This document shows, in pieces, positions 1 to 18,455 of a stretch of DNA of 60,993 bases; within the stretch, counting starts at the first letter, position 1, and every line of letters starts with the position of its first letter. Made by a program: the position numbers and the translations under genes. The stretch lies in IMG/VR virus record IMGVR_UViG_3300033516_000069, positions 1 to 60,993 of that record. The stretch is one strand, 5' to 3'. The notes beneath the pieces were generated by a model, which saw only the letters and a program-made list of their open reading frames with translations, was not told where the DNA came from and did no database searches. Source of the stretch: a virus (lineage: Duplodnaviria > Caudoviricetes).

Positions 1-80
1 ACCAATCAAGGATTGGCTTCGTTTCGAAAACGAATGGGCGCTTCGGCGCTATGGAGCGTGACCATAACCTTCCGCCATGC

Positions 81-156
81 ACAAATCACGCGCACGATGC
101 ACAAAACGTGCGCGAGGTACACAAAACGGGCGCGTGACCCACAAAACACACGCAAC
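81..156. repeat. four ~20-bp periodic units, each starting (C)ACAAA
   Basis: ACAAA at exactly 81, 101, 121, 141 followed by CGC-rich tails; tails mutually complementary. Confidence 0.75.
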
Positions 157-158
157 AC

Positions 159-232
159 TGGATCTTGATGTAACGGTAGCATAACTGACTCTGAATCAGT
201 TCGTGGTGGTTCGAATCCACCAGATCCAACCA
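159..232 (+). tRNA. tRNA-Gln(CUG)
   Basis: TGGATCT/AGATCCA acceptor, ACTGA-CTCTGAA-TCAGT anticodon arm, GTTCGAATC T loop, CCA. Confidence 0.95.
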
Positions 233-235
233 TAT

Positions 236-310
236 GGAAGCGAAGTCAAAGTAGTGCGACACTGGATTGTGGCTCCAGGTAATAGGGTGCAACTCCCTAC
301 GCTCCCTCCA
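236..310 (+). tRNA. tRNA-His(GUG), atypical (no G-1:C73)
   Basis: CTGGA-TTGTGGC-TCCAG anticodon arm; GGAAGCG/CGCTCCC acceptor with one mismatch; U73, CCA. Confidence 0.8.
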
Positions 311-314
311 AATT

Positions 315-388
315 GGGCTATTAGTATATCGGTAGTACATTTCTCTGGCAGAGAAAAGGGCTGAGTTCGATTCTCAGATGGTCCACCA
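315..388 (+). tRNA. tRNA-Ala(GGC)
   Basis: TTTCT-CTGGCAG-AGAAA; G3:U70 Ala identity pair; CCA. Confidence 0.93.
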
Positions 389-390
389 AT

Positions 391-546
391 TTCAGTGAAA
401 AGGAATCTTATTAAGGTTATGTCCAAAGTAACCCACGGGGTTCGACTCCCCAGCCTGAGCCATTTGGGCAATGAGAACCGGGTTTCTATCGTCTAAACAA
501 GACACTCTAGTTTGAATTAAGAGAGATATAAGTCTGAGTAACTGAA
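391..546 (+). ncRNA. structured tRNA-like ncRNA, copy 1 (family unassigned)
   Basis: Terminal helix TTCAGT/ACTGAA; ends conserved with copy 2; internal T arm GGGG-TTCGACT-CCCC and downstream D-arm-like TCGTCTAAACAAGAC. Confidence 0.75.
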
Positions 547-551
547 TATAT

Positions 552-625
552 GCCGGATTCGGATAGTGGCATTCCGCCTGTTTCGTAATCAGGATACCGT
601 GGTTCAATTCCACGATCCGGCACCA
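552..625 (+). tRNA. tRNA-Thr(CGU)
   Basis: GCCGGAT/ATCCGGC acceptor, loop TTCGTAA, CCA. Confidence 0.9.
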
Positions 626-626
626 A

Positions 627-795
627 AATCAGTGAATGGGAATCTTTTGTGGTACTGACGGCGATATGCCCGATGTAACCTAGTGGGGTTCAAATCCCCA
701 ATCGCCCGTCAATGGGCGGTTGTTCACACTTACGGAAAAGTGGTTAGTTTAAATAAAACACTCCTTGTGAGAGATATAAGTCCGAGTAACTGATT
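627..795 (+). ncRNA. structured tRNA-like ncRNA, copy 2
   Basis: AATCAGT/ACTGATT terminal helix; TCAGTGAA..GGAATCTT ... GAGAGATATAAGTCCGAGTAACTGA; T arm TGGGG-TTCAAAT-CCCCA; D-arm-like TAGTTTAAATAAAAC. Confidence 0.75.
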
Positions 796-800
796 AATAT

Positions 801-874
801 GCTGTTTTAGGATAGTGGTATTCTGCATCCTTGGTATGGATGAGACGGGGGTCCGATTCCCTCAAACAGCACCA
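801..874 (+). tRNA. tRNA-Thr(GGU)
   Basis: CATCC-TTGGTAT-GGATG; GCTGTTT/CAAACAGC acceptor region; CCA. Confidence 0.9.
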
Positions 875-878
875 TCAT

Positions 879-951
879 ACGTAGTGCAAGCCGGGCTTGC
901 GCCGAACTCCAAATCCGGTTGAGGTTGGTTCAACTCCAACACTACGTGCCA
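879..951 (+). tRNA. tRNA-Trp(CCA)
   Basis: ACGTAGT/ACTACGT acceptor, loop CTCCAAA, G73, CCA. Confidence 0.85.
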
Positions 952-1195
952 GAGCGATTGCTGAGTTGACATGAAAAAAATCAAAATAGGCAATTGATAA
1001 CGCGGATAAAAGCCCACTAACACCGCTACACAATAAAGTTAAACATCGACCTCGTAGGGGAAGATGGTGAGCAACATCTAAGGACCATGGAAAGAAAACT
1101 CTGAAATGAGGTAGGTATCCATGTGACGCGGGGGTTTCCCTTTAACCCGCTAAACCAAAAGAAACAGTATGGTGTATGCCACACTGAGGGAGCCA

Positions 1196-1270
1196 CCGCA
1201 TGTAGTACAATGGTTAGTACATTCGTCTGATACACGAAAGATCCTAGTTCGATTCTAGGTTTGCGGACCA
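1196..1270 (+). tRNA. tRNA-Ile(GAU)
   Basis: TTCGT-CTGATAC-ACGAA; GTTCGATTC; CCA. Confidence 0.9.
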
Positions 1271-1274
1271 TCAT

Positions 1275-1351
1275 AGGCACTATCTTCACTGGTTGTGAAG
1301 GCTCGTCTGATAAGCGATTTAAGCTGGGTTCGATTCCCAGGGTGCCCACCA
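1275..1351 (+). tRNA. tRNA-Ile(GAU), second divergent copy
   Basis: TCGT-CTGATAA-GCGA; GGTTCGATTCC; CCA. Confidence 0.87.
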
Positions 1352-1356
1352 TTCAT

Positions 1357-1432
1357 CAGTCTGTGGGATAGAAGTTCTGTCCACTTGTTTTGGGAACAAG
1401 GGGTGCTGGAGCGTTACCAGCCAGATTGACCA
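1357..1432 (+). tRNA. tRNA-Pro(UGG), aberrant T loop
   Basis: CAGTCTG/CAGATTG acceptor; CTTGT-TTTGGGA-ACAAG; T loop AGCGTTA; CCA. Confidence 0.82.
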
Positions 1433-1437
1433 TTCAT

Positions 1438-1512
1438 GCTCGTATCTTCTATGTAGTAAGAATCCCGATTCTCAATCGGATAAACAGAGTGCAAGTCTCT
1501 GTACGAGTACCA
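1438..1512 (+). tRNA. tRNA-Glu(CUC)
   Basis: GCTCGTA/TACGAGT acceptor; CCGA-TTCTCAA-TCGG; CCA. Confidence 0.88.
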
Positions 1513-1540
1513 AATATATCTGTAACACTTGAAGCGGATT

Positions 1541-1548
1541 TATAAATA
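1541..1548 (+). promoter_or_regulatory. T4-type late promoter TATAAATA
   Basis: Exact motif 5 nt before ATG 1554; recurs before many genes. Confidence 0.7.
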
Positions 1549-1553
1549 ATTGT

Positions 1554-1958
1554 ATGGAAAAGAACGACGGAGACTCTGACAGATTCCGCCCAACTCAGAT
1601 GCATCCAATCCATGAGTTGACAAAAAGAACAGACAAAATCCCAAAAGGCTTTCTATGTCCTTCTTGTGGACACCTTGCCGTAGATGAAGATGAATTACTT
1701 GGCGCAACGTGTCCAAAGTGCCTACAACAGTGGCTCATAGAGCAAAAAGTTCAACAAATGGTTCCTATCAGTGAATTGCAGGACGAAAGAGAATCGGCAT
1801 TGGTTCATACTATCGTGGTTTCTGAAAAGTTGAAAATAGATTTTGATACGCCACCATACGATGATACAACGAAGATAATGCCTAATATAGATGATATGGT
1901 AATACAAAAGAAAATAAAGAAAGTAACGGATTCTGATGATAGAATACCGGGACTATAA
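1554..1958 (+). CDS. hypothetical protein with Zn-ribbon (CPSC..CPKC)
   Basis: 134-aa ORF filling the gap between tRNAs, two CxxC pairs. Confidence 0.75.
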   Translation: MEKNDGDSDRFRPTQMHPIHELTKRTDKIPKGFLCPSCGHLAVDEDELLGATCPKCLQQWLIEQKVQQMVPISELQDERESALVHTIVVSEKLKIDFDTPPYDDTTKIMPNIDDMVIQKKIKKVTDSDDRIPGL

Positions 1959-1961
1959 CAT

Positions 1962-2038
1962 GCCCTTGTGATGAAATTGGCAAACATGTCAGCCTTAGAA
2001 GCTGAATCTTGCAGGTTCGACTCCTGTCGGGGGCACCA
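1962..2038 (+). tRNA. tRNA-Leu(UAG), short variable loop
   Basis: TCAGC-CTTAGAA-GCTGA; 5-nt variable region; A73 CCA. Confidence 0.92.
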
Positions 2039-2042
2039 TAAT

Positions 2043-2117
2043 GCGCGTCTAGTTTAGTGGTCTGAACGCTTGATTGACATTCAAGAGGTTCTGGTTCAAT
2101 TCCAGGGATGCGTACCA
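2043..2117 (+). tRNA. tRNA-Val(GAC)
   Basis: CTTGA-TTGACAT-TCAAG; GCGCGTC/GATGCGT; CCA. Confidence 0.92.
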
Positions 2118-2119
2118 GT

Positions 2120-2244
2120 AAGGTTGATTGCAGCAATCCAAATCCAAAAACTAACTGTAAATTAGAAGGACTTGGTTCGAATCCAAGCTCGCCCTAAGCA
2201 AGCGATGTGGTGTACCGGTAGCACAAAACAAGGATCAACCTGTA
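2120..2244 (+). ncRNA. circularly permuted tRNA mimic (YrlA/Y-RNA-like) carrying a GUA anticodon-type arm
   Basis: Closing helix AGGTTGAT/ATCAACCT; order anticodon arm (CTAA-CTGTAAA-TTAG), T arm (CTTGG-TTCGAAT-CCAAG), closed hairpin, D arm (GTGT-ACCGGTA-GCAC). Confidence 0.75.
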
Positions 2245-2269
2245 ACGCCCCGAAGCTAAAGGGGCACAT

Positions 2270-2343
2270 GCCCGATTCGTCTAACAGAAGGACACAACGC
2301 TACGAACGTTGGAATTTAGGTGCAAATCCTAAGTTGGGTGCCA
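2270..2343 (+). tRNA. tRNA-Arg(ACG)
   Basis: CAACG-CTACGAA-CGTTG; CCA. Confidence 0.92.
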
Positions 2344-2348
2344 ATCAT

Positions 2349-2424
2349 GGTGAGAGTAAGTTATGTAGTAAACTACTGGTCTGTGAAACCGGAAAAGCGA
2401 TTGCAAGTATCGTCTCTCACCCCA
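2349..2424 (+). tRNA. tRNA-His(GUG), canonical G-1:C73
   Basis: G-GTGAGAG/CTCTCAC-C-CCA; loop CTGTGAA. Confidence 0.9.
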
Positions 2425-2437
2425 AGTTTCTTTTCAT

Positions 2438-2524
2438 GTGTCCGTGGCGTAACTAGCAGCCGCACTACTTTGAGAGAGTAGCGGGAGAAATCCCGTGTAG
2501 GTGCAAATCCTATCGGGCACACCA
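2438..2524 (+). tRNA. tRNA-Leu(GAG), long variable arm
   Basis: CTACT-TTGAGAG-AGTAG; V arm CGGG-AGAAAT-CCCG; CCA. Confidence 0.9.
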
Positions 2525-2531
2525 TTTTCAT

Positions 2532-2607
2532 CTGAGTGTAGGTCAACAGTAGACGGCTCGTTTTGGAAGCGAGAGGTAGCTTGGTGCGACTCCAGCCACT
2601 CAGACCA
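2532..2607 (+). tRNA. tRNA-Pro(UGG)
   Basis: CTGAGTG/CACTCAG; CTCGT-TTTGGAA-GCGAG; CCA. Confidence 0.88.
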
Positions 2608-2718
2608 AGTAGTTAGTCCTGAAAAACTTACGGTTAAAAACCGAACAGTTAAGGTCTGTTAGTTCACAGTCAGAGTCGAGAAACTAACCGCTGCGCCAAG
2701 CGTTCTGACGGGCGATAT

Positions 2719-2792
2719 CGGACATTGGGATAATGGTAATCCGCCAGCTTCGGGAGCTTGAGACGGCAGTTCGATTCTGCCATGTCCGACCA
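2719..2792 (+). tRNA. tRNA-Pro(CGG)
   Basis: CGGACAT/ATGTCCG; loop TTCGGGA; GTTCGATTC; CCA. Confidence 0.9.
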
Positions 2793-2817
2793 GATAAATA
2801 ATGATAAGGAGACTACC

Positions 2818-2955
2818 ATGGCTACATTATCATTACTCGCAAGTATCACATCAATCTTGGTTAATCTTTACACTCTCTGGTCAGTTCGCAAGACACTGAT
2901 TCAAGGTGCTAAAAATGCTGCGGAAGAAGCAGAAAAGATTATCAAGAAAATTTAA
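2818..2955 (+). CDS. small single-TM membrane protein (45 aa)
   Basis: AAGGAG RBS before ATG 2818; hydrophobic N-terminal helix, charged tail. Confidence 0.65.
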   Translation: MATLSLLASITSILVNLYTLWSVRKTLIQGAKNAAEEAEKIIKKI

Positions 2956-2956
2956 T

Positions 2957-3031
2957 CGTGGTGGGTTGGAATAGTTTCCAAACGACCCTCATAAGGTCTT
3001 TAAGAGAGTGCAATCCTCTACTCCACGACCA
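2957..3031 (+). tRNA. tRNA with CAU anticodon (Met or Ile2)
   Basis: GACC-CTCATAA-GGTC; CGTGGTG/CTCCACG; CCA; lacks initiator GGG/CCC stem. Confidence 0.8.
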
Positions 3032-3042
3032 GCGCAATTGGA

Positions 3043-3163
3043 TGCTTAGACCGGAAAATCCCGCAAGGGTCTTAGTGTAATGGTTAGCACCCCCGCCCAA
3101 AGCGGGGAGATCAGGTTCGAATCCTGTTAAAGTAACGCTAGAGTTTACCGGTCGAAAGAAGTA
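3043..3163 (+). ncRNA. acceptor-less tRNA mimic on a helix with GUCGAAAG motif (Y-RNA-like)
   Basis: D arm TAGTGTAATGGTTAGCAC, GC-rich arm CCCCGC-CCAAA-GCGGGG, T arm CAGG-TTCGAAT-CCTG enclosed by GACCGG/CCGGTC then GAAAG loop and TGCTT/AAGTA; no CCA. Confidence 0.7.
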
Positions 3164-3271
3164 GGGCGGCGGCGGTTGCCCGAAAAGCTCCGACAGTGGA
3201 TGATTGCCGCCACTATAAAACAAAGAGCGGTCGCGTTCAACACCCCCTAGTGCGTTAAACTTCGGGACCAT

Positions 3272-3348
3272 GCGGTTATAGCCCAATCGGCAGAGGCGTT
3301 AGGTCGAGAACCTAAATGTTACAAGTTCGAATCTTGTTAGCCGCACCA
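3272..3348 (+). tRNA. tRNA-Leu(GAG), short variable loop, C33
   Basis: TTAGG-TCGAGAA-CCTAA; GCGGTTA/TAGCCGC; A73 CCA. Confidence 0.85.
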
Positions 3349-3465
3349 AATCTGAGCCAATAGAGGACGTAAAGGCACTAATTAATCCGTAATCTTTAGG
3401 CTTTGCAAAGCTGAAAAGATGCAGGCTGCTTTATGGGTGGTGCGACTCCACACAGAACACTTTTT

Positions 3466-3779
3466 GTAAATCAGACAATCGCTGGGGACTCCAAACCTAG
3501 AGGAAAGTCGGGGCACCAAACAAAAATCTACTGGTTAACGACCAGCATACTTTTTCAGTAGGTATGAGGAAAGGGCAGTAAGAAATAAACCGCCGATGGC
3601 TTCGCAAGAAGATCAGGTAAGGGTTGAAAATTCGGCTTAAGAAACCGGACTTCTCATAGTAATATGAGTCGAGTGTAACCCCTAGATGGTGCAAGGCAGT
3701 AATTGCCGCTTGAGGTCAACAGTAATGTTGATCCTAGACAAATGATTGTCCAACGACAGAACCCCGCTTACCGATTTAC
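3466..3779 (+). ncRNA. rnpB: RNase P RNA (bacterial type A-like, compact, ~314 nt)
   Basis: P1 GTAAATC/GATTTAC; P2 GACAATC/GATTGTC; CR-I GAGGAAAGTCGGGGCAC; CAGGTAAGGGT; GGTGCAAG; CCTAGACAAATGA; CR-V ACAGAACCCCGCTTAC complementary to CR-I (P4). Confidence 0.93.
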
Positions 3780-3798
3780 TTTACTGGAATTTTTTCAT

Positions 3799-3877
3799 GC
3801 CCCTGTAGTAGAACTGGCAAATACTAACGGCTTAAACCCGTTGAAACCTGTGGGTTCGAATCCCACTAGGGGCACCA
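3799..3877 (+). tRNA. tRNA-Leu(UAA), short variable loop
   Basis: AACGG-CTTAAAC-CCGTT; GGTTCGAATCC; CCA. Confidence 0.92.
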
Positions 3878-3883
3878 TTTCAT

Positions 3884-3958
3884 AGGCGATTAATTCAATG
3901 GTGGAATGTTGCTTTCACATAGCAAATGCCACTGGTTCGATTCCAGTATCGCCTACCA
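3884..3958 (+). tRNA. tRNA-Val(CAC)
   Basis: AGGCGAT/ATCGCCT; TTGCT-TTCACAT-AGCAA; CCA. Confidence 0.92.
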
Positions 3959-4076
3959 TAACGCTGCATCGACGGGCAAATATCGGTGTCTCTAGGAAAT
4001 TGCAGAAGATCACCTAGTATAATATAAAACATTAAATGTTGCATGCGTTAGAGTTTATATAGGAAAACTCATTAAT

Positions 4077-4155
4077 GGGGCTGTAGCAGAACCAGCATAT
4101 GCGGTCGTTTCAAAAGCGGCGTCATTTGTGGGTGCAAATCCCACCAGCCCTACCA
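4077..4155 (+). tRNA. tRNA-Leu(CAA), short variable loop
   Basis: GGGGCTG/CAGCCCT; GTCGT-TTCAAAA-GCGGC; CCA. Confidence 0.88.
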
Positions 4156-4159
4156 TCAT

Positions 4160-4236
4160 GTCGGTGTAGCCCAATTGGAAGAGGCATTTCATTCAGGGTG
4201 AAACCAGTAAGAGTTCGAATCTCTTCACCGATACCA
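4160..4236 (+). tRNA. tRNA-Leu(CAG), short variable loop
   Basis: GTCGGTG/CACCGAT; TTTCA-TTCAGGG-TGAAA; CCA. Confidence 0.9.
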
Positions 4237-4278
4237 TTGTGTTTTCCACAAGTATGTTGACTATTTAAGCAAACCCGA

Positions 4279-4286
4279 TATAAATA
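4279..4286 (+). promoter_or_regulatory. T4-type late promoter TATAAATA
   Basis: Exact motif upstream of HNH gene. Confidence 0.65.
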
Positions 4287-4306
4287 TATTATATAGGGGA
4301 TGCTTA

Positions 4307-5020
4307 ATGAGACATATAAGTAAATTTGATTTATTGACAATTGAAGATTTGAAAGCAGTAATAAACCAATCAGATAGTTATAGAGAAGTTATTTTAAAAG
4401 TTGGTCTTGATGGTGAGTGTGGGTGTCACTATATAAAGCTAAAATCTATAATTAAAAATAATAATATAGATGTTAGTCATATGACTAGAAGAAAGAATTC
4501 TATTCATCATAATAAATATTTCGGAAAAAGACCAATAGAAAATTATTTGGTTAAATCTAATAAAAAATTGTTAGGGCATTTAAAAATTAGACTTTTAGAA
4601 GAGAGTGTCTTTGCTAATAAATGTGCATTGTGTGGTCAACTACCAATACATAATGGATTAAAATTGACTCTTCAACTGGATCACATAAATGGTGATCCAA
4701 CTGATAATACTAAAGAAAATTTGAGATTTTTATGCCCAAATTGTCACTCACAAACATTAAATTGGGGATCTAAAAATTCCAAGTTGAAGCCAACACCAGT
4801 AATTAAGATTAAGAAAGAGAGAAAGTGTAAATTTTATACAACAAAAGAAGAATTAGAAAAATTATTAAAAGAAAAATCTATGAGAGAAATAGGAAAAATG
4901 TTTTCTGTATCTGACAATGCTATAAAGAAGCGGTGTATAAAATTAGGAATTGAGCTTGAGTCTTACTATTGGCAAAATAAACTTCTTCATAAAGGCACGC
5001 CGGGATCGTTCAACGGATAG
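4307..5020 (+). CDS. HNH homing endonuclease with C-terminal HTH
   Basis: CALCG...LQLDHINGDPTDNTKENLRFLCPNCH; SMREIGKMFSVSDNAIKKR; very AT-rich; 3' end overlaps tRNA-Arg. Confidence 0.92.
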   Translation: MRHISKFDLLTIEDLKAVINQSDSYREVILKVGLDGECGCHYIKLKSIIKNNNIDVSHMTRRKNSIHHNKYFGKRPIENYLVKSNKKLLGHLKIRLLEESVFANKCALCGQLPIHNGLKLTLQLDHINGDPTDNTKENLRFLCPNCHSQTLNWGSKNSKLKPTPVIKIKKERKCKFYTTKEELEKLLKEKSMREIGKMFSVSDNAIKKRCIKLGIELESYYWQNKLLHKGTPGSFNG

Positions 5021-5073
5021 GACAAGACCCTCCGAAGGTCAAAATCTAGGTTCAATTCCTAGTCCCGGTGCCA
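4999..5073 (+). tRNA. tRNA-Arg(CCG)
   Basis: GCCGGGA/TCCCGGT; GACC-CTCCGAA-GGTC; CCA. Confidence 0.92.
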
Positions 5074-5074
5074 C

Positions 5075-5102
5075 TTGACAAGCATGAATTCTTTGGTAGA
5101 AT
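5075..5102 (+). promoter_or_regulatory. sigma70-like early promoter
   Basis: TTGACA-N16-TAGAAT with TGn extension; similar TTGACT..TAGAAT at 6051-6077. Confidence 0.6.
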
Positions 5103-5108
5103 CTATTC

Positions 5109-5438
5109 ATGCCTCCGAAGCAGCCAAAACTTAAAATGTTTATAGTCCTTCGATGGGATCTTCCAGCCGAAGCGGCTGTAGTCGCGGCTGCTCACGCCTC
5201 TATCGGAACTTATCTGACATTCATAGAGAATCCTCTAATGCAGGAGTGGCAGAAAACTTCCTTCATCAAGCGCATTTGTAAAGCCTTTGACCACAGCCAC
5301 TTCCAGCGGCTCAAGCTGCTGGGAATGCACCGTGTTTTCACAGAGTCATGTCTTGGTAACTCGGAAGTATCCATCGGTTTCGACATGGTTCCCCCACCCT
5401 ACTACACCATGGAAGAAATTCCACTCTGGACAAGATAA
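5109..5438 (+). CDS. peptidyl-tRNA hydrolase, Pth2 family
   Basis: KMFIVLRWDL...AAAHAS...EW...KRI pattern of the PTH2 fold; adjacent to tRNA array. Confidence 0.75.
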   Translation: MPPKQPKLKMFIVLRWDLPAEAAVVAAAHASIGTYLTFIENPLMQEWQKTSFIKRICKAFDHSHFQRLKLLGMHRVFTESCLGNSEVSIGFDMVPPPYYTMEEIPLWTR

Positions 5439-5448
5439 ATAGAAACGT

Positions 5449-6054
5449 ATGAAAAGAATATTCCTAGACATGGATGGTGTGATCGTAAACTTCGCAAAAG
5501 GCTACGAGGATCGCGTCAACGAACGAGAACCCGGCTATCTAGAAAAGATCGGCTACAATGGAGACTTCAAGCAAATTGAAGATTTTATAAAGGCTGAATT
5601 TGAACGTATAGCCCCAAACGATAAAGAAAAGAAAAAAGCCAAGTACAGAGCTTCGAATAAGTTCTGGAGCTTCGTCACCGGTGATAAGCAATGGTGGGTT
5701 GACCTCCCCTGGATGCCAGATGGTAAGGAGCTTTTCAATAATCTCAGAACGTTAAGACAAAATGAAGTCGTGTCGGAGTTCACCATCCTTAGCGCACCAT
5801 CGAAGGTCGATCCGTGTGTCCCAGGAGCCAAGCAGGCGTGGCTTGACAAGCATGGTGTGTCGAGCAGCTTCGACAGAATCATTTTCGAAAATGACAAATT
5901 CAAGTACGCTGAAAGTTTCAACGATATCCTCATTGACGATACTCCTAAGAAACTGGATGCGTGGCAAAATGCTGGCGGAACTCCCCTGTTACATACGAGT
6001 ACCGCAAATACCCTTAAAATCCTCAACGAGATTCTGTTACAAGATAACACTTGA
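5449..6054 (+). CDS. HAD-family 5'(3')-deoxyribonucleotidase
   Basis: IFLDMDGV, ILSAP, K..WL, LIDD motifs. Confidence 0.88.
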   Translation: MKRIFLDMDGVIVNFAKGYEDRVNEREPGYLEKIGYNGDFKQIEDFIKAEFERIAPNDKEKKKAKYRASNKFWSFVTGDKQWWVDLPWMPDGKELFNNLRTLRQNEVVSEFTILSAPSKVDPCVPGAKQAWLDKHGVSSSFDRIIFENDKFKYAESFNDILIDDTPKKLDAWQNAGGTPLLHTSTANTLKILNEILLQDNT

Positions 6055-6875: not shown

Positions 6876-7619
6876 ATGAAAAGATATACATATCAAGAAT
6901 TCGTAAATAATGCAAGAAAAATACATCATAATAAATATGATTATAGTAAATTTGTATATACAAATAGTAGGACAAAAGGCGTTATCATTTGTTTGAAACA
7001 TGATGTTGAGTTTTTACAAAATCCTCAACATCATTTGCGTGGGTGTGGCTGTAGAATATGCGCCATACAAGACATTGCTGCGAGAAAATATACGACAGAA
7101 TGGTTTATAACACAGTCTAATAAAATTCATGGTAATGCCTATGATTATAGTCTGGTTTGTTACATAAGTAATAAACTAAAAGTAAAAATCATATGTAGAC
7201 GCCATGGAGTTTTTGAGCAGACACCTAACTCTCATATATCTGGTAAGCAAGGATGCCCAACTTGTAAAAAATCAAAAGGAGAGTTGGAAGTTAAAAAGTT
7301 TCTCGACGTTAATAACATAAAATATGTTACACAGAAAAAATTTGATAGCTGTAAAGGGGTATCCAAGCTACTACCTTTTGATTTCTATTTACCAGACTAC
7401 AATATTTGTATAGAATATGATGGTATTCAACATTTTAGAGGTTGGTGTAGATACAAAGAGCAAAAAGAAAAGAATTTGATTTTTTTAAATAAGATAAGAA
7501 ATAATGATAGTGTTAAGACAAACTATTGTAAATACAATAATATAAAGCTTATTAGAATAAAATACTCTGAATTTAAAAGCATAGATACTATTCTAAGAAA
7601 AGAAATATTGAAAAACTAA
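6876..7619 (+). CDS. putative homing endonuclease (Zn-binding repeats + PD-(D/E)xK/Vsr-like domain)
   Basis: Two H..KYDYS..Y...IIC..H..F.Q.P..H..G.GC repeats; SKGE; LPFDFYLP..CIEYDG.QH; AT-rich. Confidence 0.85.
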   Translation: MKRYTYQEFVNNARKIHHNKYDYSKFVYTNSRTKGVIICLKHDVEFLQNPQHHLRGCGCRICAIQDIAARKYTTEWFITQSNKIHGNAYDYSLVCYISNKLKVKIICRRHGVFEQTPNSHISGKQGCPTCKKSKGELEVKKFLDVNNIKYVTQKKFDSCKGVSKLLPFDFYLPDYNICIEYDGIQHFRGWCRYKEQKEKNLIFLNKIRNNDSVKTNYCKYNNIKLIRIKYSEFKSIDTILRKEILKN

Positions 7620-9684: not shown

Positions 9685-10206
9685 ATGAGTCTCGTAGAAT
9701 ACCGTCAAGCAGTACGTGAGAAACTTGGTTTGAAAGAAGAAGATCCTGCCATGTCATCAGGTGGAGACACTGGTATGGACTCTGGGGAAATGGGTGGCAT
9801 GAGTGGTATGGATGAGGCAACTCTCAATTCTGTACTTGAACTCGTCCAGAAGGAAATTCTCAAGCGCGAAGCCGTTGGTGAAGTTGAAGGTATGGAAGAT
9901 CCGGCAGCCAAGACGGTAGCCCCACCAGAAGCCGGTACGGCACCTGCTGGTCAGCCACCTGTAGCTGCTGAGCCTGGAGCTTCAGTTACCCTTGAGGCTG
10001 AGCAGGTTGCTGATGACATTTACTTCGAAATGCTCAACTCATTCAAGAATAATATTGCCAACTGTGATGATGCCAGCCGTAAAGAAATGTACCGTAAGGG
10101 ATACAACCACTTGTATAAGATGCGCGAGAAGTTCATTAAAGAAATGACTGCATGTGAAGAGCAGCCGACTGCTCCTGGCACCCCTGGTGCCACACAAACA
10201 CGCTAA
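9685..10206 (+). CDS. late protein, probable internal head protein
   Basis: TATAAATA 9651-9658, AAGGAG RBS, LVE/LKE/IKE motifs, low-complexity A/P/E linkers. Confidence 0.75.
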   Translation: MSLVEYRQAVREKLGLKEEDPAMSSGGDTGMDSGEMGGMSGMDEATLNSVLELVQKEILKREAVGEVEGMEDPAAKTVAPPEAGTAPAGQPPVAAEPGASVTLEAEQVADDIYFEMLNSFKNNIANCDDASRKEMYRKGYNHLYKMREKFIKEMTACEEQPTAPGTPGATQTR

Positions 10207-12407: not shown

Positions 12408-12926
12408 ATGGGATACCTCCGCAATAAAGTAGCTTATCTCGCTGGTCCGATCCATGCCGTCGCTGACGATGGCATTGGTTGGCGCGATGCAATCACCCCG
12501 ATGTTGGAGTCACATGGAGTCGTTGTAGATGATCCGTGTAAAAAGACTGTCAACGGTGTCGGTGAAGTTAAAGATGATAAGAAAATGATCATTGAATTGA
12601 TCAAGTCTGGTAACTTTGCAGAAGCAAAGAAACGTTTCTATCCAATTGTAAGAAAAGATTTAAGATCAGTTGATAAGGCTGATTTTTTAGTTGCAGTATA
12701 TGACCCAACAATACACATGGTGGGTACTCTTCATGAGATGGTTATTGCCCATACACAACGTAAACCTATTCTTCTGTGGTTTGATAAGAACAAGATAGAT
12801 AAGTTTAATCCCTGGTGTTTGACGCTTGTTAAAGAAAACATGATATTCACAGATTGGAATGCTATGTTCGATTACTTGCGGAAAATAGATGATGGTGAGT
12901 TTGACTCTAGTTATTGGACGTTGTAA
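12408..12926 (+). CDS. nucleoside 2-deoxyribosyltransferase-like protein (paralogue 1)
   Basis: AYLAGPI...GWR...DP...DLRSVDKADF...GT..E...KP. Confidence 0.85.
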   Translation: MGYLRNKVAYLAGPIHAVADDGIGWRDAITPMLESHGVVVDDPCKKTVNGVGEVKDDKKMIIELIKSGNFAEAKKRFYPIVRKDLRSVDKADFLVAVYDPTIHMVGTLHEMVIAHTQRKPILLWFDKNKIDKFNPWCLTLVKENMIFTDWNAMFDYLRKIDDGEFDSSYWTL

Positions 12927-12978: not shown

Positions 12979-13740
12979 ATGATTTATATGGCAACAAATA
13001 AAGTAAATGGTAAAATTTACATAGGAAAAACTATCAAGCAACTAGACGAGCGAATCTATGCTCACCTTCATATGGACGATAGTATATATTTTCATAATGC
13101 TATCAAAAAATATGGTATAGATAATTTTGAATGGACTATTTTAGATGAATGTAGTATTGATGAGGATAACGTAAAAGAAATATACTATATAAAATTGTAT
13201 AAAAGTACGGATAGAAAGATTGGATATAATTGTACAGAAGGTGGCGATGGTGGTGATACAATTTCACATCATCCTAAGCGATTAGAAATACTAAAAAAGA
13301 AATCTCTATCTTCCAAAAAATTATGGAAGGATAAAGAGTACAGAGATAACATGGTAGAACAGAGGCGGAAACTCAAAGACAACAAAAAGTTCTTATCGAA
13401 AGTATCATCTAATAGTATAGAAATGTGGAGTGATGATATACGAAGAAAAGAACATTCAAATAAGATTAAGAAAATTTGGAAAAAAGATAAAAAACGATTT
13501 ATGAAAAATAGACCATCTAGATTTGGTGAAAATAATCCAATGGCTAAAACTTATATCATTACAGATGCAAGTGGAATTGTGTATGAAACAAAAAATTTAA
13601 AGAAATTCTGCATCGATAAAAACATAAGTTACTATGTTATTTTAGATTTTTTAAACAAAGGTCAGATACCATTACCTTTGAAGAAAAACGGTAAAGAAAA
13701 ATTAAAGCTTGCTAATTGGCAGATAACAGATAAAATCTAA
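12979..13740 (+). CDS. GIY-YIG homing endonuclease
   Basis: IYMATN..NGKIYIG, FHNAIKKYG, E..YI, GYN...GG, GENNPM; own TATAAATA at 12955-12962. Confidence 0.92.
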   Translation: MIYMATNKVNGKIYIGKTIKQLDERIYAHLHMDDSIYFHNAIKKYGIDNFEWTILDECSIDEDNVKEIYYIKLYKSTDRKIGYNCTEGGDGGDTISHHPKRLEILKKKSLSSKKLWKDKEYRDNMVEQRRKLKDNKKFLSKVSSNSIEMWSDDIRRKEHSNKIKKIWKKDKKRFMKNRPSRFGENNPMAKTYIITDASGIVYETKNLKKFCIDKNISYYVILDFLNKGQIPLPLKKNGKEKLKLANWQITDKI

Positions 13741-14189: not shown

Positions 14190-14711
14190 ATGAAGAATTA
14201 CCTCAAAGGCAAGACCGTGTATCTCTGCGGAGCCATGGCGGCAGTAGCCGACGATGGTAAGCAATGGCGTGAGTACGTCACGACGCTGTTGAAGCAGCGT
14301 GGCGTACACGTTCTTGACCCGACCCGCAAGAAGTCCCGCTGTGCGTCTGAGATTGACGAGAACAAGGAGCTTTTCAAGCGGCTTACCCTAGCTGCTGATT
14401 TTGAGAAGCTTGCCGAAGTTTTCGCCCCAGTCGCTCGTTGGGACTTGCGATCAGTCGATAAAGCCGACTTCCTTGTTGTCAATTATGATCCCGCAGTACA
14501 CACGGTCGGCACCATTGATGAAATCGTCATCGCTAACCTGGAACGCAAGCCGATCCTCGTTCGATATGACCCAGCACAGTTGAATATCTTCAACCCGTGG
14601 CTTACTGTCCGTGTCAAGCCAAAGCATCTGTTCCCATCGTGGAAGGATCTGTTTGAGCATCTTGATATCGTTGATGGTGGTACTTTCGACAGGGATCTTT
14701 GGACCATATGA
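14190..14711 (+). CDS. nucleoside 2-deoxyribosyltransferase-like protein (paralogue 2)
   Basis: Collinear with 12408 (AVADDG..WR, DLRSVDKADFL, FNPW). Confidence 0.85.
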   Translation: MKNYLKGKTVYLCGAMAAVADDGKQWREYVTTLLKQRGVHVLDPTRKKSRCASEIDENKELFKRLTLAADFEKLAEVFAPVARWDLRSVDKADFLVVNYDPAVHTVGTIDEIVIANLERKPILVRYDPAQLNIFNPWLTVRVKPKHLFPSWKDLFEHLDIVDGGTFDRDLWTI

Positions 14712-16976: not shown

Positions 16977-17286
16977 TGAAGCCCCAAAGACGGAACAGGA
17001 AAAGCCAAAAATAAAGCAGCCCAAGCAGCTTAAAATAAGCATGCTTCGCCCCAAGGATGAATTTCATCCAGGTGGTTTTCTATTTAAGATAATTGATAAC
17101 GACGGAACCACTGTCCTGAAAGAATATTGGGACATTGACAAGGGACTAGGTACGCAATTTTGTAGGAATTGGTTGAAGGTCCGTTCTGGTGAAGAACTTG
17201 ATTTTTATAAACCACCAGAGCCAACACCTAAAGTAGAAGCCGAACCGCCAAAGGAAAACAATGCCGAACCAAAACAAATGGGATAA
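16969..17286 (+). CDS. hypothetical protein
   Basis: GGAGG RBS, GTG start. Confidence 0.65.
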   Translation: MTDEAPKTEQEKPKIKQPKQLKISMLRPKDEFHPGGFLFKIIDNDGTTVLKEYWDIDKGLGTQFCRNWLKVRSGEELDFYKPPEPTPKVEAEPPKENNAEPKQMG

Positions 17287-17695
17287 TCTTTTTCTTAGCA
17301 TTGCAATCAATGTTTCGAAAATGAGTAAAGACCCAAGCACTAAAGTTGGGTCAGTTATAGTGACAAATGACAATAGACAATGTTCGTTTGGATATAACGG
17401 ATTCGCCTCTGGTATAGAAGAGAAAGAAGAGTATTGGAATAACAGAGAAATAAAATATGAAATGGTAATACATGCCGAAGAAAATGCTATTTTAAATTGT
17501 CCATTTGATATACGGGGATCTAAAATTTATATTACACATAAGCCTTGCCATAAGTGTTTGATACGATTATATCAAGCTGGAGTTGTTGAAGTGTATTATA
17601 TTAACGACTATATTAGGTCTACTCATTCACAGATATGGGATTTACATGCTAGTAAATTCAAACTTGTTAAACAGTTGAGCATTACTGACCAATAA
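17261..17695 (+). CDS. dCMP deaminase
   Basis: SKDPSTKVG, GYNG, HAEENA, PCHKC. Confidence 0.93.
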   Translation: MPNQNKWDNLFLSIAINVSKMSKDPSTKVGSVIVTNDNRQCSFGYNGFASGIEEKEEYWNNREIKYEMVIHAEENAILNCPFDIRGSKIYITHKPCHKCLIRLYQAGVVEVYYINDYIRSTHSQIWDLHASKFKLVKQLSITDQ

Positions 17696-17747: not shown

Positions 17748-18455
17748 ATGAAAATAACAACAAAGTCAATTAAACACGGTGATGTGATTTTTGAAATAGA
17801 CGATGAATGTTACGAAAATATAGAAGGGTGGAAATTAAGATGTATTGAAAATGGAAGTGGTCAAAAGTATCTTGAATTAAATAAGGTTGTTGGACCTGTA
17901 CGAATGGTTACGACATATCATCGTTATATTTTAAATTGTCCAGAAGATAAAGTCGTTGATCATATCAATGGTGATACATTAAATAATAGAATAAGTAACC
18001 TTAGAATCGCATCACAACAACAAAATTGTTGGAATAAAAGCAAATTAAGTACAAGAAAATGTCATTCTAAATATCTGGGCGTCACATGGGTTAAAGCAAC
18101 ATCTAAGTGGCAGGCTAGAATAGGAAATATATATTTAGGAAGATTTGAAAAAGAAGAAGATGCGGGCTTGGCATATGATACAAAAGCAAGAAAAATATAT
18201 GGCGAATATGCTAAACTTAATTTTCCTGATAGTCGCAACGAGATATGTGGTGTCATACGACAAAAGAAAACATCAAAATATAAAGGTGTTATATTTGATA
18301 AAAAAACAAGAAAATGGAGAGCGTCTGTAATGATAAACGGTAAAAGATATTCGGCTGGAAAATGTTTTATCACAGAAGAAGAGGCGGCTGCCGCATATAA
18401 TAACATGATTATACAATATAACGGAAGCCGCCATAAATTAATAAAAATTATTTGA
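17748..18455 (+). CDS. HNH endonuclease with AP2 DNA-binding domains
   Basis: VDHINGDTLNNRISNLR; SKYLGV..KWQARI..YLGRF..E.A..AYD; second AP2; TATAAATA 17722-17729. Confidence 0.92.
   Translation: MKITTKSIKHGDVIFEIDDECYENIEGWKLRCIENGSGQKYLELNKVVGPVRMVTTYHRYILNCPEDKVVDHINGDTLNNRISNLRIASQQQNCWNKSKLSTRKCHSKYLGVTWVKATSKWQARIGNIYLGRFEKEEDAGLAYDTKARKIYGEYAKLNFPDSRNEICGVIRQKKTSKYKGVIFDKKTRKWRASVMINGKRYSAGKCFITEEEAAAAYNNMIIQYNGSRHKLIKII

Follow-up and report, generated by a model that had tools for sequence, protein, structure and literature searches.

In phage T4, a cluster of eight tRNA genes also encodes two small stable RNAs (RNAs C and D, or species 1 and 2), which are freed by tRNA-processing enzymes; it includes a homing endonuclease gene, and an RNase P RNA is not known from it. 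The RNA of RNase P counts as a housekeeping ribozyme of cells. Huge phages carry sets of translation genes that comprise tRNA arrays, transfer-messenger RNA (tmRNA) and tRNA enzymes, as Al-Shayeb and colleagues reportedly described in 2020. Here we analyze a 60,993-nt stretch of phage DNA, which is the whole of the IMG/VR virus record IMGVR_UViG_3300033516_000069 (hereafter the window; linear, CheckV completeness 28%) and whose positions 1–5438 are best read as the downstream part, cut at the contig edge, of an extensive tRNA array that an uncultured jumbo phage carries on one strand. Besides its tRNA genes, this array holds a class A RNase P RNA gene and four RNAs that are built from tRNA arms without being tRNAs (S2, S3, S7 and S9), one of which, S9, belongs to a conserved family. 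On balance we favor the reading that the array carries independent RNA genes as modules, which would be released by the processing that makes the tRNA ends.

The locus shares features with several described systems. As in the huge-phage gene sets, a large tRNA array is present, and a tmRNA occurs in relatives. Like the T4 cluster, the array contains other RNAs and a homing-endonuclease-like gene; compared by description only, its RNAs are larger than RNAs C and D, are tRNA-shaped and have capped acceptor ends. In circularly permuted tRNA genes such as those of the red alga Cyanidioschyzon merolae, the two parts of the cloverleaf are swapped, the 3′ half being encoded first, and a linker connects the strands of the acceptor stem. 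In the accessible portions of the description of YrlA (RF02553), a tRNA-mimicking Y RNA of bacteria and mycobacteriophages, the tRNA-like domain has the hairpin order V, T, closed acceptor (AS), D, and a GNCGAAN0-1G motif near the 5′ end is the likely contact of Rsr; in M. smegmatis, RNase P cleaves a YrlA that has a 7-bp stem, and CCA is added to it, and the authors warn that tandem tRNAs mimic the YrlA layout (Chen et al., 2014; PMC4201824). When a circular megaphage was scanned with Rfam, tRNAs and one tmRNA were the only RNAs detected, so far as the accessible part of that report extends (PMC8172020), whereas the array of the window has RNase P RNA and non-tRNA structured RNAs.

Relatives of the window allowed a comparative analysis of these elements. 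Pattern scans recovered phage B, represented by two IMG/VR records (G033 and G047, with 12,994 nt of identical sequence) plus two metagenome contigs, as well as phage C (two variants, C1 and C2) and phage D, a separate lineage. Phages B, C and D are 80–92% identical to one another and 73–83% identical to the window. In phage B, at least 43 tRNAs were found by ARAGORN over the two records, along with a tmRNA and an RNase P RNA. A closer relative, on contigs of run X3, is about 92–98% identical to the window, as estimated from the listed differences, and its contig extends about 11.5 kb further upstream. Of the sequencing runs listed for positions 1–5500, none is an RNA run, and the four that were compared with the window are DNA contigs. 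Parts of the array region are contained in Logan contigs from microbial-mat and lake metagenomes, and a search of the phage collection gave no match to positions 1–5500 (megablast) or to the RNase P region (blastn).

Phage-encoded RNase P RNA

Positions 3463–3786 (plus strand, 324 nt) match the model of bacterial class A RNase P RNA (rnpB, or M1 RNA; RF00010) with 179.4 bits, compared with a gathering score of 100, and the match runs end to end over model positions 1–367. Helices P1–P5, P7–P14 and P18 are aligned, and both the specificity and the catalytic domains are there. In contrast to the bacterial RNA, the phage RNA has 4 bases in place of 43 model positions within P15, lacks L15, P16, P17 and P6, has short P3 and P12 helices, and forms P15 as a simple hairpin with a 5-nt loop. 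The first-pass annotation had called this RNA full, which is correct for the span of the model and incorrect for the P15 interior (L15/P16/P17) and P6. In class A RNase P RNA, L15 docks the 3′ CCA of the tRNA.

The pattern of change in this gene points to a maintained structure. Both P4 strands align at high posterior probability, with one pair compensatorily swapped, and P4 is invariant among three phages. When the window was aligned with phages B and C1, changes of both bases that preserve pairing appeared at 18 of the 86 predicted pairs, and contig variants contribute three further compensated pairs (one hairpin). The gene is 83% identical to that of phage B, and in both phage B and the close relative it lies directly 3′ of tRNA-Leu(GAG), whose counterpart in the window is at 3272–3348. 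Phage D, however, gave no RNase P match in the 14-kb locus (L103) searched on its 37-kb contig, where at about 7476–7570 the sequence jumps from a tRNA-Leu to DNA located about 330 nt past the RNase P gene of phage B.

RNase P RNA genes recur among large phages. A scan of IMG/VR for the P4 motif returned 48 stretches, and RF00010 was matched in 43 of the 46 records searched, including all seven that are at least 90% complete; many of the records are 150–500 kb in length. A literature search returned no description of phage-encoded RNase P RNA. The window's copy differs from its bacterial counterpart also in being encoded by a phage within a tRNA array with no cognate RnpA gene seen: RnpA was found in none of the three clade records (the window and two IMG/VR pieces of phage B) and in none of 16 other large RNase-P-bearing phage records, seven of them at least 90% complete. 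We infer that the phage RNA likely has the host protein subunit (RnpA) as its partner.

S9, a conserved tRNA-like RNA

S9 (3032–3271, plus strand) is a structured RNA of 240 nt with a core at 3040–3220. Orthologues placed between two tRNAs are found in phages B, C1, C2 and D, for a total of five sequences from four lineages. The fold consists of a long-range helix P1, which joins the 5′ leader with the 3′ domain, and a 6-bp closing helix P2, within which stand a hairpin leading to a canonical D arm with GG, an arm at the anticodon position (loop of 4–7 nt), a T arm and a further hairpin; the core is followed by a near-invariant 3′ domain. The middle pair of the T arm is GC, AU or CG depending on the lineage, and three of the six pairs of the closing helix are changed on both sides in the window relative to the others.

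A covariance model of the 182-position core, termed R1 and built from its members, scored the five members at 149.7–223 bits, and nothing else exceeded 29.7 bits (ordinary tRNAs) in 70 sources comprising 752 kb. In the model-based alignment, which is fitted to the model and represents four lineages only, 92.7% of the cells are paired, and both bases have changed in 12 of the 41 pairs; none of 500 shuffles reached these values, and slid controls gave 1–5 pairs. Thus the covariation among homologues on which the first-pass annotation had made its reading depend is strong for S9. No Rfam family was matched by S9 apart from a partial tRNA match, and no further members were obtained from added motif scans, including eight IMG/VR stretches that share the 3′-domain motif. 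Compared across its orthologues, S9 appears to be a real and undescribed structured RNA, clearly under selection, with a tRNA-like elbow and no acceptor end.

An alternative fold was proposed by RNAalifold on the raw MAFFT alignment of S9, in which the T-arm region is paired with the 3′ domain; it was rejected, since covariation supports the T hairpin and the other pairing is disrupted in phage D. The 3′ domain contains a possible GGCGR/YCGCC pseudoknot pairing that is consistent in four of the five sequences. Upstream of S9, the window and phage B share a conserved hydrophobic open reading frame (ORF) of 45–50 amino acids, followed by one tRNA and then S9. The ORF of the window (45 amino acids; 2818–2955, plus strand) is 47% identical over 45 amino acids (E 1e-12) to that of phage B (L093:10227–10379).

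Permuted tRNA look-alikes S2, S3 and S7

Three other spacers on the plus strand, S2 (389–551), S3 (626–800) and S7 (2118–2269), are also tRNA-shaped. All were recognized by sequence reading, S2 and S7 with the support of a relaxed descriptor scan and S3 as a paralogue of S2 by hand alignment. Each of S2, S3, S7 and S9 has a canonical T arm, a D arm with GG, and extra hairpins, in an order that is not that of a tRNA. The earlier count of at least four non-tRNA RNAs made from tRNA arms is therefore upheld (389–551, 626–800, 2118–2269 and 3032–3271); of the three topologies assigned to them, the non-tRNA arm orders stand, and we recognize only two clear topologies plus variants.

S2 and S3 share the order hairpin, T arm, loop-closed acceptor-like hairpin (6 bp in S2, 7 bp in S3), D arm with GG, and 4-bp hairpin, and a tRNA-Thr gene lies directly 3′ of both. 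Their 5′ ends are near-identical, their 28-nt 3′ ends are 93% identical, and the ends can pair as a bulged terminal stem that encloses the rest, a stem also given by RNAalifold on the hand alignment. Among 24 pairs in this hand alignment, fitted to the structure and limited to the two paralogues, 11 are unchanged, one is changed on one side, nine are changed on both sides with pairing, and three are broken. The S2/S3 region is kept in the close relative. The S2/S3 3′-end pattern had no matches in IMG/VR, and the syntenic spacer of phage B has a tRNA-like fold that is arranged differently, with only a short motif in common with S2. We lean toward the view that S2 and S3 are still under selection.

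In S7, an 8-bp closing stem surrounds an anticodon-like arm, a 5-nt variable stretch, a T arm, a closed acceptor-like hairpin of 4–5 bp and a D arm, after which a 3′ hairpin follows. The anticodon-like loop has 7 nt (CTGTAAA) and reads GTA. Over bases 2149–2185, S7 shares 73% identity with tRNA-Gln (anticodon and T arms), and the tRNA model scored 22.2 bits on positions 2122–2195, whereas S2, S3 and S9 were below the cut-off or unscored. No orthologue of S7 was seen. Judged from features intrinsic to its sequence, S7 is probably under selection as well. All three RNAs may have arisen from tandem tRNAs, and the support for selection on them is modest. A descriptor scan for a T arm, a hairpin and a D arm gave no hits in its strict form; the relaxed form found S2 and S7 together with one false match in a coding region and missed S3, which has a longer linker.

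By our own assignment, S2, S3 and S7 resemble YrlA, as far as the accessible description of the latter goes, in the arm order V, T, AS, D, in their canonical T and D loops, and in ends that leave via a terminal stem. They differ from it in lying between tRNA genes, with no Ro60 gene within 4 kb or in the 61 kb of the window; S7 has a full anticodon-like arm, and S2 and S3 have an extra hairpin. The YrlA covariance model (RF02553) gave no match at E values up to 10 on positions 1–5500, 380–810 and 2110–2275, and its only match in phage B is a tandem tRNA pair. The motif GNCGAAN0-1G is absent from S2, S3 and S7; it occurs twice in positions 1–5100, compared with 2.2 occurrences expected, and the one copy in S9 is not conserved.

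Ro60 and other candidate partners

The first-pass annotation proposed that the mimics act as Ro60 tethers and named partner proteins that might accompany them. None of Ro60/TROVE, RtcB and RnpA was found in the 61 kb of this 28%-complete record: TROVE/Ro60 had no match at E values up to 1 in the window and none in the two IMG/VR pieces of phage B, and the same two pieces and the window gave no RtcB. With TROVE, the YrlA model and the Rsr motif all lacking, a tethering role finds no support within the window itself. Matches to TROVE above the cut-off were present in five of 16 other large RNase-P-bearing phage records, and in three of the seven that are at least 90% complete. Two records (G007, L107:1373–11843, and G042) have an array with RNase P RNA within 6–9 kb of a Ro60/TROVE gene; in G042 (L108:2258–11307) the order is a tRNA array with RNase P RNA, a YrlA-like match (38.7 bits, below the cut-off of 69) and TROVE. 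By analogy, a Ro60 tether role is possible, since TROVE occurs in five of these 16 records. A literature search yielded nothing relevant on tRNA-like decoys.

Proposed processing of the array and alternative readings

Every one of the 24 tRNA genes encodes its CCA end. T is present at position −1 in 20 of the 24, mostly as part of CAT, TAT or AAT, and nine of the tRNA–tRNA junctions are only 4–7 nt long. With these features and a structurally constrained RNase P RNA in the same array, polycistronic processing at the tRNA ends, as first suggested, is the natural reading. The array would be transcribed as long precursors. Given that CCA is encoded in every tRNA and that ...AU stands before most of them, RNase P would cut each tRNA 5′ end, the short 4–7 nt trailers would be trimmed back to CCA, and anything between two tRNAs would be freed as a discrete RNA by the same cuts. 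The phage type A RNase P RNA, slimmed by loss of its CCA-docking L15/P16/P17 module and most likely joined by host RnpA, would raise the capacity for 5′ processing during a flood of phage pre-tRNA. The tRNA-derived inserts would keep the elbow formed by the T and D loops, with the acceptor end capped or replaced, and they therefore could not be aminoacylated; such RNAs might bind proteins or RNAs that recognize the tRNA elbow.

Several points weigh against this reading. The RNase P RNA has no CCA-docking loop, although all tRNAs of the array carry CCA, and phage D, one close lineage, seems to manage without the gene, so the contribution of the phage RNA may be small. The S2/S3 pair count comes from a structure-fitted hand alignment of two paralogues only. 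S7 is without an orthologue and, with its tRNA-Gln identity and weak tRNA match, resembles a decayed tandem tRNA pair. Against an approximate dinucleotide shuffle, the spacers do not stand out in folding energy (z from −2.3 to +0.6); neither does S9 (z = −0.44), hence this measure is uninformative. With the record about 28% complete, partner genes may lie elsewhere in the genome.

The RNase P RNA gene could be an inert passenger, captured from a host and unused by the phage, as its missing L15/P16/P17 module, its absence from the syntenic site of phage D and the failure to find a phage RnpA in the three clade and 16 other records would allow. Eighteen compensated pairs of 86 and an invariant P4 core in three diverged phages, the conserved position after tRNA-Leu(GAG), and the recurrent retention implied by RF00010 matches in 43 of 46 P4-motif records (seven of seven at least 90% complete) make this very unlikely. 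A broader objection is that the spacers other than S9 are functionless, decaying leftovers of tRNA duplication and recombination in a fast-evolving array, because a segment that starts at the anticodon arm in one copy and stops at the D arm in its neighbor will by default have a "permuted" order. The 73% identity of S7 to the tRNA-Gln arms and its weak full-length tRNA match agree with this view, as do the loss of S10 and S11 and the largely different S5 in the close relative (these spacers are described below), the differently folded syntenic spacer of phage B with its short motif shared with S2, and the unremarkable z-scores. The same concern is raised by the YrlA authors' warning, in the accessible text, on tandem tRNAs, and the sole YrlA match of phage B is such a pair. 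However, the five hairpins of S2 and S3 are preserved across nine double changes, with termini that are 93% identical, the D loops retain GG and the T loops TTCRA, the flanking halves that a simple tandem would leave are gone and closing stems stand in their place, and the close relative retains the S2/S3 region. In addition, S9 shows that tRNA-derived inserts in the array can be strongly selected. We therefore consider decay a rather unlikely account of these spacers.

Two other alternatives accept the permuted RNAs as functional and assign them a different role. S7, and perhaps S3, might be a circularly permuted or split tRNA gene, cut by RNase P in the acceptor loop, supplied with CCA and used in translation, S7 with a Tyr-type GTA anticodon. 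Like the C. merolae genes, S7 encodes the 3′ half first; all four arms are present, the linkers are normal apart from the one between the D and anticodon arms, and T33 and A37 occur in its 7-nt anticodon-like loop. The closed acceptor-like stem of S3 has 7 bp, and tRNA-Tyr was not found in the window. In the accessible description, the M. smegmatis YrlA, also with a 7-bp stem, undergoes RNase P cleavage and receives CCA (PMC4201824). Unlike in C. merolae, however, the break of S7 at the D/anticodon junction is held by an extra 8-bp helix, the acceptor-like stem is short (4–5 bp) and its loop has no CCA, and no splicing-endonuclease motif or ligase was identified; RNA ligase/RtcB was not found in the fragment, and the equivalent loops of S2 and S3 are not anticodon-like. 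A normal tRNA-Tyr may sit upstream of the truncated array, and phage B has one. Maturation of S7 to a tRNA is thus unlikely, and translation from such permuted genes extremely so. The system proposed by the first-pass annotation takes the mimics as YrlA-type Y RNAs that tether phage or host Ro60/Rsr to an effector, or as decoys for tRNA-cleaving defence nucleases, in one cassette with RNase P and Pth2. It draws on the YrlA hairpin order of S2, S3 and S7 (V, T, closed acceptor, D, as given in the accessible part of PMC4201824) and on the TROVE genes of five of 16 other RNase-P-bearing records (three of seven at least 90% complete), with the order array, YrlA-like, TROVE in G042, and an abiF-motif RNA in the arrays of phages B, C and D is a hint that RNAs related to defence can reside in such arrays. 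Against these stand searches for TROVE and RtcB that found neither in the window and neither in both phage B pieces, a YrlA model that is unmatched even on short stretches, a GNCGAAN0-1G motif missing from S2, S3 and S7 and present in S9 as a single unconserved copy at chance frequency, a Pth2 gene with its own promoter that is unlinked to an array in three of three more distant loci, and no target defence nuclease identified. We regard that system as quite improbable for this locus. Overall, the observation made in the first-pass annotation is confirmed and its interpretation is partly supported, and the reading of independent RNA modules within a processed tRNA array is the one that we carry forward.

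tRNA genes of the array

With default settings, ARAGORN found 20 tRNAs, all on the plus strand, between 159 and 5073. Matches above the cut-off of the Rfam tRNA model (RF00005) add 236–307, 1438–1509 and 2350–2421, for 23 tool-supported genes, and no tRNA genes were found in 8000–60993. The 24th gene (2957–3031), which was seen by ARAGORN at -ps80 only, ends in CCA and is aberrant, with a 6-bp D hairpin without GG and a CAT anticodon loop. The earlier count of 24 co-oriented, CCA-ending tRNAs is correct, with one aberrant gene and several unusual ones.

All of the following genes are on the plus strand and were found by ARAGORN unless stated otherwise. The array begins with tRNA-Gln(CTG) at 159–232, which encodes CCA, followed by a gene at 236–310 with a His-like GTG anticodon loop, a TGCAA T loop and no G−1 (Rfam 37.3 bits; sequence reading; missed by ARAGORN at -ps90), and tRNA-Ala(GGC) at 315–388. 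After S2 and S3 stand tRNA-Thr(CGT) at 552–625 and tRNA-Thr(GGT) at 801–874, respectively, and then tRNA-Trp(CCA) at 879–951 (ARAGORN and Rfam), two copies of tRNA-Ile(GAT) at 1196–1270 and 1275–1351, tRNA-Pro(TGG) at 1357–1432 with an odd T loop (ARAGORN only), and tRNA-Glu(CTC) at 1438–1512 with the T loop TGCAA (Rfam 41.1 bits; ARAGORN at -ps90). The central part contains tRNA-Leu(TAG) at 1962–2038 (77 nt, short variable arm), tRNA-Val(GAC) at 2043–2117, tRNA-Arg(ACG) at 2270–2343 (T loop TGCAA), tRNA-His(GTG) at 2350–2424 with an encoded G−1 and C73 (Rfam 44.6 bits), tRNA-Leu(GAG) at 2438–2524 (87 nt, long variable arm), a second copy of tRNA-Pro(TGG) at 2532–2607 and tRNA-Pro(CGG) at 2719–2792. 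Between S9 and the array end are the 77-nt tRNA-Leu(GAG), which directly abuts the RNase P RNA in relatives, tRNA-Leu(TAA) at 3799–3877, tRNA-Val(CAC) at 3884–3958, tRNA-Leu(CAA) at 4077–4155, tRNA-Leu(CAG) at 4160–4236 and the final gene, tRNA-Arg(CCG), at 4999–5073.

The T loop reads TTCRA in 14 of the 24 genes and TGCRA, with G at position 55 in place of the normally conserved U55, in eight; two are otherwise odd. Genes with TGCRA or odd T loops, which have the lowest Rfam scores of the set, include 236–310, 1438–1512, 2270–2343, 2350–2424, 2438–2524, 2532–2607, 2957–3031 and 4077–4155. Five of the tRNA-Leu genes (1962–2038, 3272–3348, 3799–3877, 4077–4155 and 4160–4236) are 77–79 nt long and do not have the usual bacterial long variable arm; the sixth (2438–2524) has 87 nt, and together they cover all six Leu anticodon types but AAG. 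Promoter-like sites within the array number 12, compared with 10.1 ± 3.7 expected, and are thus not enriched; the best one lies 3′ of the last tRNA.

Inserts and modularity

The remaining spacers are all on the plus strand. S5 (952–1195, 244 nt) is poorly conserved in the close relative (joints 874 to 1035 and 1059 to 1195). S8 (2608–2718, 111 nt) has hairpins and no tRNA arms. S10 (3349–3462, 114 nt), which contains a T-arm-like hairpin, is precisely absent from the close relative (joint 3348 to 3464), and the AT-rich S11 (3959–4076, 118 nt) is also absent (joint 3928 to 4070). Two further protein genes lie within the array. The ORF list gave an ORF of 134 amino acids (ORF134; 1554–1958, plus strand), with CxxC pairs and no family match in a family search, and an HNH homing-endonuclease-like ORF of 237 amino acids (4307–5020, plus strand), which lies in DNA of low GC content and overlaps the start of the next tRNA. 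The close relative keeps 1–874 and 2807–3348, joins 1423 to 2604, and has 128 nt in place of 4156–5011 (joint 4155 to 5012). The clean absence or replacement of S10, S11 and the HNH region in this relative, and the lack of RNase P RNA at the syntenic site of phage D, show the modularity of the array. S10, S11, the HNH gene and ORF134 are best read as dispensable inserts, and S5 and S8 may be dispensable too.

A Pth2-like protein downstream of the array

The gene that follows the array (5109–5438, plus strand) encodes a protein of 109 amino acids with a predicted Pth2 fold. Its match to the Pfam family PF01981 is just under the cut-off (21.9 bits, compared with 23 bits). Twenty-three homologues were found, some on contigs of 380–406 kb, and five of these have a precomputed PF01981 match; a single-protein scan of IMG/VR gave no relative. 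A profile of the 23 homologues had only Pth2 chains as its top matches (E 0.0016 to 0.22). The predicted fold has a predicted local distance difference test score (pLDDT) of 74.6, and the top 13 Foldseek PDB matches listed are all of the Pth2 family, with TM-scores of 0.58–0.72 and one nuclear magnetic resonance model at 0.43. The protein would thus resemble Pth2 hydrolases (PDB 1q7s, 3erj, 1xty and 1rlk) in fold and in the N-terminal RxDL and HA motifs. It differs from them in that the sequence alignment covers residues 7–76 only and the C-terminal half does not align, and the Lys of the GK motif, which is catalytic in Pth2, aligns to Ala in the family profile.

A sigma-70-like promoter found by a promoter scan (5075–5102, plus strand; TTGACA-16-TAGAAT, 11 of 12 matches, with TG) ends 7 nt before the ATG of this gene. 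In the close relative, the gene still adjoins tRNA-Arg, whereas at three IMG/VR loci with homologues of 44–60% identity there are 1, 1 and 0 tRNAs within 10 kb, such that array linkage is absent in all three. The Pth2-type hydrolase noted directly downstream of the array therefore does adjoin it and has the predicted fold, yet it has a strong promoter of its own and is not array-linked in the more distant loci. The best reading is a neighboring, separately promoted gene for translation support.

Genomic setting and side observations in relatives

The rest of the window encodes a baseplate-spike-like protein, giant minus-strand ORFs of up to 2208 amino acids and ClpP, a gene content that fits a fragment of a jumbo phage. 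Within 18 kb there are four homing-endonuclease-like genes of the HNH and GIY-YIG types (4307–5020, 6876–7619, 12979–13740 and 17748–18455). Genes at 12408–12926, 14190–14711, 17261–17695 and 5449–6054 comprise two nucleoside 2-deoxyribosyltransferase-like genes, a dCMP deaminase and an NT5C-type nucleotidase; this run hints at nucleotide salvage or DNA base modification. The leader of the array (1–158, plus strand), at the contig edge, starts with ACCA, which might be the last bases of a tRNA located upstream. At 77–158, immediately 5′ of the first tRNA, it has about four tandem 20-nt repeats of the type CACAAAAC-N-GCGC, which, from their sequence, might serve in regulation or as binding sites for a protein.

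Among the tRNAs of phage B are one of the amber suppressor type (anticodon CTA, labeled Pyl by ARAGORN; G033 17552–17625), two 97-nt tRNAs with reported four-base anticodons, and a 116-nt tRNA match directly after its S9 copy (G033 9712–9808 and G047 13476–13573 among the sites); introns or inserts are a possible explanation for these odd tRNAs. An abiF-motif RNA (RF03085, 38.7 bits, compared with a cut-off of 37) lies between tRNA-Pro and tRNA-Asp in the relatives, at L093:9992–10028 (phage B), L100:106–142 and L103:4901–4937. Phages B, C1 and D have exactly the same letters for this RNA and the hairpin before it, with neighboring DNA that is 85–92% identical; the window does not contain the RNA. 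This RNA may be a phage copy of a defence-associated RNA.

Implications

The new elements described here are a phage variant of RNase P RNA, orphan YrlA-like tRNA mimics and S9, the conserved family of tRNA-like RNAs, and not a new kind of system. A further-reaching proposal, speculative and on present evidence unlikely as a whole, is that jumbo-phage tRNA arrays are RNA-processing operons, in which the phage RNase P frees tRNAs together with uncharged tRNA-shaped RNAs (the permuted mimics and S9) as a counter-defence or hijacking layer that would occupy elbow-reading host factors such as Ro60/Rsr, anticodon nucleases and processing or modification enzymes, with the abiF-motif RNA of the relatives as a further decoy. 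If the mimics do bind Ro60 or defence nucleases, they would represent a new class of RNA anti-defence.

The conserved phage RNase P RNA within a tRNA array suggests that 5′ processing of pre-tRNA can limit large phages during infection, and it offers for study a naturally minimized type A ribozyme without the CCA-docking module. S9 provides a well-supported, undescribed family with a clear fold. The tRNA-shaped RNAs of this locus suggest that the tRNA genes of phage arrays serve as raw material for new non-coding RNAs.

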